Shown: positions 10,215 to 15,588, counted from the stretch's first letter. The stretch: DNA of 21,476 bases from a virus (IMGVR_UViG_648276645_000003:1-21476), one strand, 5' to 3'. The notes: generated from the sequence alone by a model not told the origin. Numbers and translations are program-made.

Positions 10215-10949
10215 ATGAAAAATATTGCGGCAGGCGGCATTCTTGAACGTATCCGCAGACTGGCCCCGCCACATGTAACCGCCCCATTCAAAACGGTAGC
10301 GGAGTGGCGCGAGTGGCAACTTTCCGAAGGCCAGAAACGTTGTGAGGAGATCAACCGTCAGAATCGTCAGTTGCGGGTGGAAAAAATTCTGAATCGCTCT
10401 GGCATCCAGCCATTGCACCGCAAATGCTCGTTTGCGAATTACCAGGTGCAGAACGACGGTCAGCGATACGCGTTGAACCAAGCGAAATCTATCGCTGATG
10501 AACTGATGACCGGGTGTACAAATTTTGCGTTCAGCGGAAAACCTGGTACCGGAAAAAACCATCTGGCGGCGGCTATCGGGAATCGCCTGCTGAAAGATGG
10601 CCAGACAGTGATTGTGGTTACCGTGGCTGATGTCATGAGTGCTCTACACGCCAGCTATGACGACGGGCAATCAGGCGAAAAATTTTTGCGGGAACTGTGC
10701 CAAGTGGATCTGCTGGTTCTTGATGAAATTGGCATTCAGCGCGAGACAAAAAACGAGCAGGTGGTGCTGCACCAGATTGTTGATCGCCGGACAGCGTCGA
10801 TGCGCAGCGTGGGGATGCTGACAAACCTGAACTATGAGGCTATGAAAACATTGCTCGGCGAGCGGATTATGGATCGCATGACCATGAACGGCGGACGCTG
10901 GGTGAATTTTAACTGGGAGAGCTGGCGTTCGAATGTTGGCTTGCGATGA
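10215..10949 (+). CDS. ydaV: Replication protein, DnaC-like helicase loader (YdaV-like)
   Basis: 244-aa ORF; Walker A FSGKPGTGKNHLAAAIG and Walker B DLLVLDEIG; typical position after the O-like gene. Confidence 0.85.
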   Translation: MKNIAAGGILERIRRLAPPHVTAPFKTVAEWREWQLSEGQKRCEEINRQNRQLRVEKILNRSGIQPLHRKCSFANYQVQNDGQRYALNQAKSIADELMTGCTNFAFSGKPGTGKNHLAAAIGNRLLKDGQTVIVVTVADVMSALHASYDDGQSGEKFLRELCQVDLLVLDEIGIQRETKNEQVVLHQIVDRRTASMRSVGMLTNLNYEAMKTLLGERIMDRMTMNGGRWVNFNWESWRSNVGLR

Positions 10950-10990: not shown

Positions 10991-11087
10991 GTCACCCGGT
11001 TGACAATTACAAATATTTTATTGACGATGAATGGAAAATGCGTGACGATTACAATATATGACTTGTCAAAGTATAATGAGAGATTGC
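10991..11087. promoter_or_regulatory. Iteron-like repeat array and promoter region upstream of the AAA+ ATPase gene
   Basis: TGAC(A/G)AT direct repeats begin at 11001, 11022 and 11043 (exact 21-bp period); inverted copy TTGTCAA at 11063-11069 and GTCAC at 10991-10995; -10 candidates TACAAT 11050-11055 and TATAAT 11072-11077. Confidence 0.5.
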
Positions 11088-12191
11088 ATGAAGATTAACC
11101 ATGAGGATTTAATTGATCTTATAAAGGCATCACTGGATGCGAATTACAGCGAAGTTCGTAGTGTTAGTAATCGCATTGTTCGCGCAATTAGCGCTCAGGA
11201 TGCTGACTTAGCAAAGCAAATTAAGTCTATCATCCGTAAAAAAGGGGTACCATTACGTAGCTCTGGTTATACGGACAGTTTGCCCTTAGATCCGAAATCA
11301 AGGATGCCTTTAGTGGAAGAAGTCGAATGGCCTGCAACGCCTTTATTTCTTTCTGATGAATCACAGCATATTTTTCATGCTTTTATTCAGAATGTTATCC
11401 ATCAGAATGAACTTATAGAGAATGGAATTCCAGGTAAATTGAATTTACTTCTTTCTGGTCCGCCAGGAACAGGTAAGACATTAGTCGCTGGTCATATCGC
11501 ATCCAAATTAAACAAACCGCTCTATGTTGTTCGGCTTGACTCTGTTATTTCTTCTCTGTTAGGTGATACAGCGAAGAACCTAAGACAGATTTTTGACTTC
11601 GTCCCGACAAAAGATGGTGTGTTATTTCTTGATGAAGTAGATGCGGTTGCTAAGCTTCGTGATGACAATCAGGAAGTTGGAGAGTTAAAAAGAGTTGTTA
11701 ACACATTAATCCAAGGACTGGATTCTCTTGATGATTCTGCTATTGTCATTGCTGCAACTAATCATTCGAAGCTATTGGATCCAGCAATTTGGAGACGTTT
11801 CCCATATAAAATTAGCTTTGGTTTGCCTGGACAAGATGTCAGATGTGCTATGTGGGAACATTTTTTATTTAGAGATGATACGGATTCATTTCTAAGTAAA
11901 ATGTTATCTATCATATCAACTGGGCTAACAGGTGCTGATATTGAAAATATCAGTTTATCTGCAAGAAGGCATAGTGTTTTATCTGGCAATGGACTGGATA
12001 TACCATCTGTTGTTTATGCTATATTGAATAGCGTTGCGGATAGTACAGCAATTCCTTTTGGTAAGGATATAAATTCGAGTGTTAAGAAAAATTTAGCGAA
12101 GGAATTATCTAAGTTTAAATTATCACAGGCAGATATCGGTAGACTTTTAAATGTGAGCAGGCAAACTATATCAGGTTATTTCAAGGAATAA
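11058..12191 (+). CDS. Classical-clade AAA+ ATPase with C-terminal HTH-like tail
   Basis: Walker A GPPGTGKT (residues 134-141), Walker B VLFLDEVD (188-195), sensor-1 IAATN, second-region-of-homology-like LLDPAIWRRF; C-terminal LSQADIGRLLNVSRQTISGYF resembles an HTH; alternative ATG at 11088 has a GAGAG RBS; AT-rich (~35% GC). Confidence 0.85.
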   Translation: MTCQSIMRDCMKINHEDLIDLIKASLDANYSEVRSVSNRIVRAISAQDADLAKQIKSIIRKKGVPLRSSGYTDSLPLDPKSRMPLVEEVEWPATPLFLSDESQHIFHAFIQNVIHQNELIENGIPGKLNLLLSGPPGTGKTLVAGHIASKLNKPLYVVRLDSVISSLLGDTAKNLRQIFDFVPTKDGVLFLDEVDAVAKLRDDNQEVGELKRVVNTLIQGLDSLDDSAIVIAATNHSKLLDPAIWRRFPYKISFGLPGQDVRCAMWEHFLFRDDTDSFLSKMLSIISTGLTGADIENISLSARRHSVLSGNGLDIPSVVYAILNSVADSTAIPFGKDINSSVKKNLAKELSKFKLSQADIGRLLNVSRQTISGYFKE

Positions 12192-12193
12192 TT

Positions 12194-14461
12194 ATGGTCA
12201 GTGAAAATAAAGCTAAAATTTTAAACCCAATAATTACTTTATTGAAACCACCAACGCCAGAGGCGATTCCTGTTGGAGGGAAAAGTCGTAAAAATATTGT
12301 TGGTTCACGGTTGAAACAACAGCGTGAAGTTTTATCCTCAGAGATAGATTCCATATTAAGAACAGAAAGTGAAATAGTTAAACATCGTGGTAAGTATCAT
12401 ATAGTAACAAGTATGTTTGAGGACTCATATGCACCATCGTTTATACCAGATTCATTATTCTGTCCCAGTGTTGAATGTAAGATAGTTGCACCAGCATACA
12501 ATGGATATTTAATTGAGGTCAATAGCAATGCTTTATTGAAGTTGAAAAATAAAATTAATAATGCAAAAGCTATTACTGATCTTGTGGATATTTCAAGGGT
12601 TAGAAGTGTTAGTCTTTTTGATTCATCTTGTACATTGCGAAATAGTAGCCTTGATTCGCTCTGGAATACAGTTAAGGCTTTGAATACATTTCAATTTAAT
12701 GTGTGGTTTATGCCTTTTTTTGATGAGCTTTCTAGAGAGTCTGTAGTTTCAACTTTTTTAAATTTTTTAAATGATGGTATCATCGCTTTTGGTTATTCAG
12801 ATTTTGACATAAAAACTATAAATCAAGATGCTGCTGTTGGCGGGGATAATATAGTCATAGTTCCACCGTTACTTATTGAAGCGATAAAAAAGTATCGTAA
12901 ATCAGGTCAAGCATCCGTTACCGTCACTGTAGAGACTAAAGATAGTTTAAACAGGATGCTGAATAGCAGTGCTGTGTATCGTATAGATCCTGTATCACCG
13001 CTAAACGTAACAGATACTCCTCCTGGTAATGGGGCTGAACCTGTTCCACCAATATTGGGGGATAAGAAAATGCCAACTGTAGTTGTAATTGATGGTGGGT
13101 GCAATGCGAAATCATATTCAAAATTAAATATATATAAACTAAATCCGCTAATTCCAGATCATGATGCAGATTGTAAACATGGTAATAAAGTTGTATCGTT
13201 GTTATGTCACGGTTATGCTTGGAATAATAATTTAAACTTACCTAAATTGCAATGTAGCTATATAAGTGCACAGGCTATTGCGAAAAGGGGAGTGTTGAAA
13301 CAACCAACTCCGGATCAATTTTTAAATTATTTAAGAATGGTTGCTGACAAAACGTCATCTATCGCCAAGGTCTGGAATCTTTCGTTTAATGAAGACGCTC
13401 CTCATTATAACTGTAATGAGATAAGTTATCTGGGACATAAAATCAGTTTGTTGGCTCGAGAATTTGGTATTCTGCCTGTAATATCTATCGGTAATGTTTC
13501 AAAGAACGAAAAACAAAAAAATCTTTGTCCGCCCGCAGATTGTGAGTCAGGAATTACAGTAAGTGGGAGAACGGCCAATCATGAAGGAATGCCTTCAGAT
13601 GGCTGTCCTTTAAGTCGGAAAGGCCCTGCTCCTGCAGGAATGAAAAAACCTGAGTTATCATGGTTTTCTCGAGTTAGGGTGATAGGTGGAACAGTAGATA
13701 TCGGAACAAGTTTTAGTGCTCCATTAGTTTCATCTATTGCTGCTCATACCTTTTCGAATATTAAAAATGCCACTCCTGATTTGGTTAGGGCATTATTGAT
13801 TAACAGGAGTGAGTTGCTTTCTCATGATGATGCATTAGGATGGGGGACTCCTTGGGATGGCGATTTACTGCCATGGTATTGTAAAGATGGCAGTGTCACA
13901 TTAACGTGGATATCTAAGTTAAAGGCTGGGGCTGCTTATTATTGGAACGATCTTCCATTACCTCCAGAGATGTTAGTTAATGGTAAATTAGTTGGTGAGA
14001 TATCTCTGACAGCTATACTAAAACCTAAGGTTTCTGAGTTCGGAAGTGAGAACTATTTTTCGACAAGGCTCCAATGTTCGTTACAGGCAATAAAAGAAAT
14101 TAACGGGACGCTAAAAACAGAAAGCCTTCTTGGGTCAATGAAAGAATCTTCTGTTGATGAGCGTAAAGCTAGAAATGAACTTTCTAAATGGAGCCCTATT
14201 CGCCATCATGCAGAGTCGTTTAAGAGAAAAGATATAACAGGGTGTAAAATTCGGCTTTATGCTAGGATATATGCTAGAGATTTGTATCAGTATGGGTTAA
14301 ATAACCAACGGGAGCTTGAAGAGCAAGAGGTTTCCTTTGTTTTAACTTTTAAAAGTGTATCAGGATCGTCCTCAATATATACATCAATGGTTCAGCAACT
14401 TGGTGTTTATGTTGAAAGTGCTGTTATAGATAATCACATTAACATAGATGTTAATAAGTGA
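12194..14461 (+). CDS. Subtilisin-like (S8) serine protease, large multi-domain, cytoplasmic
   Basis: 755-aa ORF starting 2 nt after the ATPase stop, with AGGA RBS inside the ATPase 3' end; ordered S8 motifs VVVIDGG (Asp300), CKHGNKV (His329), GTSFSAP (Ser507); no N-terminal signal peptide; about 290 aa N-terminal and 235 aa C-terminal of the catalytic core unassigned; AT-rich. Confidence 0.8.
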   Translation: MVSENKAKILNPIITLLKPPTPEAIPVGGKSRKNIVGSRLKQQREVLSSEIDSILRTESEIVKHRGKYHIVTSMFEDSYAPSFIPDSLFCPSVECKIVAPAYNGYLIEVNSNALLKLKNKINNAKAITDLVDISRVRSVSLFDSSCTLRNSSLDSLWNTVKALNTFQFNVWFMPFFDELSRESVVSTFLNFLNDGIIAFGYSDFDIKTINQDAAVGGDNIVIVPPLLIEAIKKYRKSGQASVTVTVETKDSLNRMLNSSAVYRIDPVSPLNVTDTPPGNGAEPVPPILGDKKMPTVVVIDGGCNAKSYSKLNIYKLNPLIPDHDADCKHGNKVVSLLCHGYAWNNNLNLPKLQCSYISAQAIAKRGVLKQPTPDQFLNYLRMVADKTSSIAKVWNLSFNEDAPHYNCNEISYLGHKISLLAREFGILPVISIGNVSKNEKQKNLCPPADCESGITVSGRTANHEGMPSDGCPLSRKGPAPAGMKKPELSWFSRVRVIGGTVDIGTSFSAPLVSSIAAHTFSNIKNATPDLVRALLINRSELLSHDDALGWGTPWDGDLLPWYCKDGSVTLTWISKLKAGAAYYWNDLPLPPEMLVNGKLVGEISLTAILKPKVSEFGSENYFSTRLQCSLQAIKEINGTLKTESLLGSMKESSVDERKARNELSKWSPIRHHAESFKRKDITGCKIRLYARIYARDLYQYGLNNQRELEEQEVSFVLTFKSVSGSSSIYTSMVQQLGVYVESAVIDNHINIDVNK

Positions 14462-14501: not shown

Positions 14502-14522
14502 ACCCGCCTCGGCGGGTTTTTT
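14502..14522 (+). terminator. Rho-independent terminator of the ATPase-protease operon
   Basis: GC stem CCCGC/GCGGG with 4-nt loop, followed by T6 at 14517-14522, about 40 bp past the protease stop. Confidence 0.75.
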
Positions 14523-14555
14523 ATCTGCCGATGGTGAAGGTTGAAAAATAATCAC

Positions 14556-14704: not shown

Positions 14705-14917
14705 GTGAAAAACTCACAGGAATCTTTTAGCACTAAATTTGCAGTCATACGTTGTGATGATCTGTCAGTTATTGTTGAAATGGATTATTTCCCTGATACA
14801 CAAAAAGCAATGATGTATCGGAATGGCCGCAAGGCAATTTTTTTACCGATGAGGAATAGTGATATTATGGGAAATGATAAATTGCCAGATGAATTGCGAG
14901 TCAGGGCATCCTGTTAG
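14705..14917 (+). CDS. Small hypothetical protein in the AT-rich island
   Basis: 70-aa ORF with GTG start preceded by GGAGG (14696-14700, 4-nt spacer); AT-rich like the upstream operon; no recognisable motif. Confidence 0.45.
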   Translation: MKNSQESFSTKFAVIRCDDLSVIVEMDYFPDTQKAMMYRNGRKAIFLPMRNSDIMGNDKLPDELRVRASC

Positions 14918-14988: not shown

Positions 14989-15588
14989 ATGGCGCATATA
15001 CAACTGGTCAAACAAACCTCTTCCGGATTACTTCTCCCGGCGACGCCGGAGAGTTGTGATTTTCTGCATCAAATAAAAATAGGTGAGTGGATACACGCAG
15101 ACTTTAAGCGTGTGCGTAACTACGCATTCCACAAGCGTTTTTTCAAACTCCTGCAACTGGGATTCGATTACTGGACTCCGGTCGGTGGGGCGATCACGCC
15201 TCGCGAACGAGAACTGCTGTCTGGTTTCGTGGATTACCTGTGCGAATCAGTTGGTCGGGAACATACGCCAGCCCTGAGTGATGCCGCAGAGCAATACCTT
15301 AACACCGTTGCGACTCGCAGAACCCGGGATACGGCGTTGCTAAAGTCGTTTGAGGCTTTCCGCGAGTGGGTAACCATTCAGGCCGGATTTTACACCGAGC
15401 ATATTTATCCGGACGGTAGCCGTGGGCGTCGGGCAAAATCCATCGCTTTTGCGAATATGGACGAAGTCGAGTTTCAGCAGGTTTATAAATCTGTACTGAA
15501 TGTGCTGTGGAACTGGATTCTGTTCCGTAAATTCTCCTCTCAGGAGGAAGTTGAAAATGTGGCCGCACAACTACTGGAGTTTGCGTAA
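14989..15588 (+). CDS. Conserved lambdoid nin-region protein, function unknown
   Basis: 199-aa ORF with GGAGAA RBS; backbone-like GC content; first gene of a translationally coupled block leading to the Q-like gene. Confidence 0.7.
   Translation: MAHIQLVKQTSSGLLLPATPESCDFLHQIKIGEWIHADFKRVRNYAFHKRFFKLLQLGFDYWTPVGGAITPRERELLSGFVDYLCESVGREHTPALSDAAEQYLNTVATRRTRDTALLKSFEAFREWVTIQAGFYTEHIYPDGSRGRRAKSIAFANMDEVEFQQVYKSVLNVLWNWILFRKFSSQEEVENVAAQLLEFA

Follow-up and report, generated by a model that had tools for sequence, protein, structure and literature searches.

A helix-turn-helix tail on the antitoxin ATPase IetA and phased repeats at its own promoter: a case for autoregulation of ietAS

Introduction

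Does the antitoxin ATPase of a two-gene anti-phage system carry a DNA-binding domain at its C-terminus and, if so, which DNA would that domain read? The question is raised by a prophage locus within a 21,476-nt stretch of viral DNA (IMGVR_UViG_648276645_000003; hereafter the window), in which the gene for an AAA+ ATPase (ietA) is followed by the gene for a subtilase (ietS). Gao et al. (2020) reportedly recognised IetAS as a defence against phage. It is a widespread and experimentally validated anti-phage and toxin–antitoxin system (PMC13069673); as related in later accounts (PMC8562856; PMC13069673), it was first described by Yamamoto et al. 2009 as a plasmid-stabilising toxin–antitoxin pair of pTiC58. 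IetA is reported to be the antitoxin and IetS the toxin, and the mechanism of defence is stated to be unknown (PMC13069673; PMC8562856).

Three things are already known: IetAS itself, helix-turn-helix (HTH) antitoxins that autoregulate, and fusions of AAA+ ATPases with HTH domains. In the literature searched, no mention was found of an HTH on IetA, of autoregulation by IetA or of repeats at its promoter. Set against that literature, the HTH tail and the promoter repeats add an undescribed feature to a system that is itself known.

The ietAS pair and its setting

On the evidence of profiles, gene adjacency and motifs, the pair in the window is an IetAS defence or toxin–antitoxin system. Both genes lie on one strand, the ATPase gene first and the S8 subtilase gene 2 nt behind it, as in the IetAS layout. 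The PADLOC profile for IetA (PDLC02196) matches the ORF with E = 5e-100 over residues 16–376 of a 377-aa ORF, tail included, and that for IetS matches the product of the downstream gene with E = 1e-65; Pfam finds AAA in IetA (E = 4e-29) and Peptidase_S8 in IetS (E = 6e-14). The top NCBIfam matches are IteA_antiphage for IetA (E = 1e-88) and IteS for IetS, both below their equivalog cutoffs (297.7 vs 510 bits for IteA and 177.8 vs 900 bits for IteS), and the two proteins therefore represent a divergent subfamily. The motifs of the ATPase are intact: Walker A (GPPGTGKT, residue 124), Walker B (LFLDEVD, residue 179) and the WRRF arginine-finger region (residue 235). The motifs of the catalytic triad are present in IetS: Asp in VVIDGG (297), His in KHGNKV (328) and Ser in GTSFSAP (504).

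IetA is placed in the classical FtsH/Cdc48/Vps4 clade of AAA+ proteins. At the position of pore-loop 1 (residues 156–160; 11553–11567 in the window) it has S-L-L-G-D, which is near-invariant in the family and puts a leucine at the position of the aromatic residue of Vps4 and FtsH.

The start of IetA is almost certainly the ATG at 11088, because a RefSeq AAA family ATPase (P0001; Escherichia albertii/E. coli) that is 100% identical to it has 367 aa, and because homologues align from that methionine; residue numbers refer to this 367-aa protein. A start at the ATG at 11058 would give a longer ORF (11058–12191) that overlaps repeat 4 and the –10 box of the upstream region, and homologues give it no support.

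The pair is cargo of a Rac-like prophage (intR, recET, racR, ydaSTUV) adjoining ttcA; on one side of the insertion is ydaV, which codes for a DnaC-like ATPase (10215–10949), and on the other a DUF1367 gene (14989–15588). This insertion is present in one of 5,426 complete E. coli genomes; the ydaV end is common to more than 1,300. Past the ietS terminator, and before the DUF1367 gene, there is a short ORF (14705–14917), and the matching E. coli record has an incomplete hypothetical protein annotated just 3′ of ietS, possibly an insertion scar.

The Shine-Dalgarno sequence of ietS lies within the final codons of the HTH, 7 nt from the ietS ATG at 12194. This overlap, together with the 2-nt gap between the ietA stop and the ietS start, suggests translational coupling of the two genes, and it may place an extra constraint on the C-terminal K-E of enterobacterial homologues. 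The features of the locus are collected in Table 1.

Table 1. Features of the ietAS locus, in positions of the window
Feature	Position	Strand	Basis or comment
Putative operator array	11000..11068	+	Four direct hexamers, exactly 21 bp start to start; sequence, family statistics
Repeat 1, TTGACA	11000	+	
Repeat 2, TTGACG	11021	+	
Repeat 3, GTGACG	11042	+	
Repeat 4, TTGTCA	11063	+	
Best sigma-70-like promoter match	11048..11077	+	ATTACA, 18-nt spacer, TATAAT; consensus scan 10/12, consensus match only
ietA CDS	11088..12191	+	367 aa + stop; AAA+ ATPase, antitoxin partner of IetAS
AAA+ ATPase core	11445..11822	+	Walker A, Walker B, WRRF
AAA lid, residues 249-314	11832..12029	+	AlphaFold helices 249-259, 267-276, 282-299, 305-314
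Lid-HTH linker, residues 315-329	12030..12074	+	Variable sequence; pLDDT ~72-74 (blocks 311-330)
Three-helix HTH domain, residues 330-366	12075..12185	+	AlphaFold, Foldseek, profile, conservation
HTH helix 1	12075-12107	+	AlphaFold
HTH helix 2	12126-12149	+	AlphaFold
HTH turn	12150-12158	+	
Recognition helix 3, RQTISGYFK	12159-12185	+	AlphaFold
Shine-Dalgarno for ietS, AAGGAA	12181..12186	+	Read from sequence; inside final HTH codons TTC AAG GAA
ietS CDS	12194..14461	+	755 aa; S8 subtilase, toxin/effector partner; PADLOC, Pfam, motifs
Terminator-like hairpin with T-run (intrinsic type)	14502..14527	+	3′ end of two-gene operon

Fold of the C-terminal tail

The first-pass annotation had proposed, from the pattern of hydrophobic and polar residues, that the last ~28 residues of the protein (12105–12188) form an HTH-like tail behind the ATPase core. 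The presence of such a tail is confirmed by predicted helices, structural matches, a profile match to XRE-type proteins and conservation. Its boundaries have to be redrawn: the peptide KELSKFKLSQADIGRLLNVSRQTISGYFKE occupies 12099–12188, with the TAA stop codon next, whereas position 12105 falls two codons late, at LSKFKL; and the proposed segment does hold the HTH core, but the domain is ~38 residues long, its first helix starting at residue 330 (nt 12075).

In an AlphaFold2 model built from an alignment of 106 sequences, the tail forms three helices (330–340/343, 347–354 and 358–366) with pLDDT of ~90, and when modelled alone it takes the same three-helix fold with a mean pLDDT of 88. Thus the tail is predicted to be an ordered HTH, neither disordered nor part of the lid. 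In the alignment of homologues, the columns of the linker that separates it from the lid are low in information, except for P323.

When the isolated tail was compared with the PDB by Foldseek, 50 of the 50 listed matches were small helical DNA-binding proteins, nearly all of them classical HTH proteins; the matches reach TM scores of at most 0.76 and a probability of 0.99, with an E-value of only 0.26 because the query has just 46 residues. The top matches include SIRV1 ORF55, IstA, the DeoR-operator complex, Pax5, the Sin, gamma-delta and Tn3 resolvases, and Tc3.

Pfam gives sub-threshold matches to 16 HTH families, of which HTH_3 is the best (E = 2e-4 with the last 53 aa); this match spans profile positions 7–31 of 55 and misses the gathering threshold of 23 bits both with the whole protein (17.6 bits) and with the tail alone (21.7 bits). 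Precomputed matches to HTH_3, HTH_23 or HTH_7 are present in some IetA homologues. Because the Pfam hits alone are not decisive, a profile of 34 tails (A2) was compared with the sequences of the PDB. It matches the PbsX-family regulator 9k3w (E = 4.7e-7) and CylR2 (1utx; E = 4.9e-7), and also a mycobacteriophage immunity repressor (E = 3.6e-4) and the antitoxin PezA (E = 7e-4). The five-helix XRE domain is not complete: the protein ends one residue past helix 3, and helices 4 and 5 are absent. In the computed model, then, the tail of IetA is a separate, three-helix version of the XRE-type HTH.

Conservation of the tail and the clade that lacks it

Among 106 homologues of 53–81% identity, the tail is one of the best-conserved stretches outside the ATPase core, with the consensus SQADIARLLGVSRQxVSxYLKE; R358 and Q359 are near-invariant, and Y364, L365 and K366 are conserved in 88–92%. 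The HTH-like tail is kept at 35–45% identity in Planctomycetota, Thermodesulfobacteriota, Bacillota and gut metagenomes, and computed conservation is in this sense deep. The recognition helices of these distant homologues include SKATAYR, SSKTTIQK and VSTGYISK, and SLRKVKD in Enterococcus. A plasmid of Enterococcus faecium (L082) has a TIR-domain gene (2083–2901) 46 nt upstream of the ietA–ietS pair, which may be a three-gene variant; the tail of its IetA, ISQREIAEQFSFSLRKVKDCL, is divergent and HTH-like. In a Hyphomicrobiales MAG (L075, 4001–4462) the ietA frame is broken after ~153 codons, probably as a pseudogene or through an assembly frameshift.

A separate clade of IetA proteins, 320–335 aa in length, stops at the lid and is without the HTH tail. 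It includes the type found on Ti and Ri plasmids (328 aa in the Ti type) and ~60 loci on viral contigs, most of which have next to them an ORF of ~800 aa, consistent with IetS. On two plasmids, pTiC5.7 of Rhizobium rhizogenes (L001, 2328–2921) and a P. aeruginosa plasmid (L083, 2046–2636), a gene for a DUF6088/AbiEi_4 winged-helix protein lies ~245 nt 5′ of the tail-less ietA, on the same strand, and could encode a separate regulator. As a general substitute for the HTH in tail-less loci, this DUF6088/AbiEi-like regulator was rejected: it was seen on these two plasmids and at none of the 10 viral-contig loci with a nearby upstream ORF.

Repeats upstream of ietA in the window

Directly upstream of the TATAAT –10 box (11072–11077) of the best promoter match lies an array of four direct hexamers (Table 1); repeat 3 abuts the –35 element and repeat 4 lies in the spacer. 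Copies of a 14-nt repeat family (D1) occur 42 bp apart in the same region. A phased pair of TT[TG]AC[AG] hexamers is found nowhere else in the window, on either strand. The last repeat, TTGTCA at 11063, is best read as a direct copy that matches in five of six positions. Its reading as an inverted TTGACAA (TTGTCAA at 11063) is disfavoured by the exact 21-bp phasing and by the same pattern at other loci, and a search for palindromes 5′ of ietA gave none that was convincing: the signal consists of direct repeats. The same array, with hexamers at 0, 21, 42 and 63, is present in three Photorhabdus loci (L002, L003 and L062) in which IetA is 65% identical and the sequence of the spacers differs.

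Phased repeats across IetA loci

The clade to which the IetA of the window belongs by its recognition helix ([ST]RQ; clade A) gives 63 dereplicated promoter regions. In these, the strict hexamer TT[TG]ACA occurs 11.4 times per kb, compared with 0.36 in the remaining 430 kb of these loci; the clade A repeat (TTGACA/TTTACA) resembles the sigma-70 –35 box, so that part of this enrichment could reflect promoters. In the same promoters, 46 pairs of the hexamer lie 20–22 bp apart and 15 are separated by 42 bp; the rest of the loci has no such pair, and shuffled sequences give 0.03.

The phasing was also measured with no motif assumed, by counting pairs of 9-mers with at most one mismatch at all distances from 8 to 45. 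In each of three HTH-bearing clades the counts rise to one narrow maximum at 21 bp, with a further signal at 42; the clades have 23, 37 and 21 hits over a background of 0–2. The 37 HTH-less loci have no spacing peak, also none out to –500 nt upstream. Counted by locus, 21-bp phased repeats are present in the promoters of 67 of 126 dereplicated HTH-bearing loci and in 0 of the 37 HTH-less loci (Fisher, 9e-11, phylogeny ignored); this contrast rests on few independent events, because the HTH-less proteins form one clade and the statistics do not take phylogeny into account. About half of the HTH-bearing loci thus qualify under the strict definition of the repeats, and the others have degenerate hexamers. 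A stronger argument than presence and absence is the covariation across four classes of recognition helix.

Covariation of recognition helix and repeat

When the class of the recognition helix is set against the phased motif at the promoter, the table is essentially diagonal, with one off-diagonal hit. The [ST]RQ helix goes with TT[TG]AC[AG] (34 of 62 loci), the SKATAxR helix with CGT[CT]TC (18 of 40), the SKTTIQK helix with TCGTTC (9 of 11) and the STGYxS helix with TTGTTCA (3 of 3), and none of the four motifs is found at the 37 loci that have no HTH (0/37).

The SKATAxR clade (clade B) has a fixed order of elements: TTGACA, repeat 1, –10 box, repeat 2 ending in ATG, and repeat 3 at +21. Repeat 1 is located in the spacer between the –35 and –10 boxes and repeat 2 at the start codon. 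Of 41 SKATAxR loci, 23 have a good –35/–10 promoter with a 17-nt spacer, and its –10 box stops precisely 6 nt short of the ATG, a geometry that implies, as a prediction, a leaderless ietA mRNA at these loci. Comparison across the family thus finds operator-like repeats that overlap the ietAS promoter and track the DNA-binding domain of the antitoxin.

Two details of clade B (metagenome loci L085–L134) concern the coding sequence. One operator repeat, CGTYTC-ATG, contains the start codon of ietA (e.g., L089, ~1400–1525), and another repeat lies inside ietA codons 6–9 (R-F-M).

Proposed mechanism

The most probable reading of these data is that an oligomer of IetA binds the repeats of its own promoter via the HTH and so controls ietAS in the manner of an autoregulating type II antitoxin. 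Such a use of the repeats had been suggested in the first-pass annotation and is now backed by the restriction of 21-bp phased repeats to HTH-bearing loci and by the covariation of helix and repeat. The physical binding of IetA, its oligomeric state, repression as the effect and any link to the sensing of phage are what we infer.

The truncated XRE-type HTH (helices 1–3) would be held on the lid of IetA by a flexible linker. IetA is likely to be an oligomer, and several HTHs could engage the direct-repeat array at once; a spacing of 21 bp corresponds to two helical turns and would put the sites on the same face of the DNA. The array overlaps the ietAS promoter, and its occupancy by HTHs would occlude RNA polymerase. 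Binding of IetA would in this way repress, or at least set, the transcription of ietA and ietS, and the level of antitoxin would feed back on its own synthesis, i.e., negative autoregulation of an antitoxin–toxin operon. The handling of IetS would fall to the ATPase core. The sites of XRE proteins are usually inverted repeats, not direct ones. A direct arrangement would suit an oligomer in which each subunit is reached from the last by rotation, as in a ring or a spiral, and not by a dyad; 21 bp (~71 Å) is roughly the step from one subunit to the next along the outer edge of an AAA+ hexamer.

A further reading, which we consider quite unlikely, goes beyond repression: the promoter-bound IetA oligomer would be the resting state of an immune switch. 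Here, a ring or spiral of the classical, protein-unfolding AAA+ type would sit on 63–84 bp of same-face direct repeats, anchored there by tethered HTHs (at most four to six of them), and its occupancy of DNA would be coupled to the way in which it controls IetS. Removal of IetA from its substrate or from the DNA by a phage cue would have two effects, release of the protease and derepression of the operon. If true, this would be a DNA-scaffolded AAA+ antitoxin, a logic undescribed for any defence system or for AAA+ proteins of the classical clade.

Alternative explanations

Three other explanations (sensing of phage DNA, reading of the repeats by another factor, and a protein-binding tail) are, even taken jointly, unlikely to hold the answer, and all three leave the covariation of helix and repeat unexplained.

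Perhaps the HTH is a sensor of phage DNA, replication intermediates or other non-self nucleic acid, the binding of which releases or activates IetS. A defence ATPase equipped to bind DNA could in principle use that domain for sensing, and IetAS acts by abortive infection, with some of the phage escape mutations lying in replication proteins (bioRxiv 10.1101/2022.08.27.505566). However, what has been identified as the trigger of one Bacillus IetAS is not DNA but a phage protein (bioRxiv 10.1101/2022.08.27.505566), and the whole IetA clade that includes the Ti-plasmid type works without a tail. The recognition helix covaries with the repeats of its own promoter, which points to a sequence-specific target on self DNA, and the sequence data give no pointer to a phage target, leaving a sensor of this kind very improbable.

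The chances are equally slim that the repeats are real but read by another factor, as tandem –35 boxes or promoters or as sites of a host or prophage regulator, the HTH acting elsewhere. The clade A repeat is near the sigma-70 –35 consensus, its last copy is often the –35 box itself, and the prophage in the window carries its own repressors; yet CGTYTCA, TCGTTC and TTGTTCA are equally phased and are unlike a –35 box. Moreover, the repeats follow the recognition helix of IetA across very different hosts and contexts and vanish where the HTH is absent, and among the loci examined no other conserved neighbour gene was seen.

Least probable of the three is a tail that serves as a protein–protein or lid-extension module, for example to dock IetS or stabilise the oligomer, and plays no part on DNA: small three-helix bundles can mediate protein contacts and the domain is shorter than a canonical XRE domain, but the highest conservation falls on residues of the DNA-contact type (the S/T-Q that opens helix 2 and the SRQ that opens helix 3), the variable linker sets the tail apart from the lid, and covariation with DNA repeats would be left without explanation.

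Implications of the proposed IetA autoregulation

Autoregulation by IetA through its HTH, if correct, would be a first testable clue to the control of the poorly understood IetAS system. A fused XRE-like HTH is present in most IetA clades, each of which has its own 21-bp-phased promoter array, and the four classes of helix paired with four motifs constitute a predicted specificity code. Judged from its sequence and that of its promoters, IetA also looks like a sequence-specific DNA binder, which is rare for an AAA+ protein of the classical FtsH/Cdc48 type. A practical rule for annotation follows: IetA proteins with the HTH and those without it should be treated as two subtypes. That antitoxins autoregulate is well known, so that the surprise for specialists is a moderate one.

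Comparison with known systems

Like the known IetAS systems, the pair in the window consists of an AAA+ ATPase gene followed by an S8 subtilase gene on a mobile element, in this case a prophage. The Ti-plasmid type of IetA and its ~60 relatives on viral contigs have neither the HTH tail nor phased repeats at the promoter, whereas the IetA of the window has both.

Type II antitoxins with an XRE-type HTH, such as PezA, resemble IetA in combining a DNA-binding module with a module for control of the toxin, and in having operator repeats over their own promoter; HigA and MqsA are other XRE-type HTH antitoxins that autoregulate their operon. The neutralising module of the type II antitoxins is a short peptide, whereas that of IetA is an AAA+ ATPase of ~330 aa. 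The HTH of IetA sits at the C-terminus and consists of three helices, and its putative sites are direct repeats at 21 bp, not palindromes. With the XRE/Cro-C1 repressors CylR2 (1utx) and the PbsX-family 9k3w, IetA shares similarity in helices 1–3 and the motif SQxxLAxxLxVSRQTI; it differs from them in that its HTH is without helices 4 and 5, is fused to an ATPase and has direct repeats as its putative sites.

AAA+ proteins that act on arrays of sites through a DNA-binding domain at the C-terminus are known: the NtrC-type enhancer-binding proteins and DnaA. IetA belongs neither to the clade of sigma-54 activators (the Sigma54_activat match in IetA is under threshold, 17.4 vs 20.2 bits) nor to that of the initiators, and its HTH is XRE-like rather than of the Fis type or like domain IV of DnaA. 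What IetA has in common with these proteins is the order of the modules, AAA+ followed by HTH, and, as proposed here, an oligomer placed on multiple phased sites.
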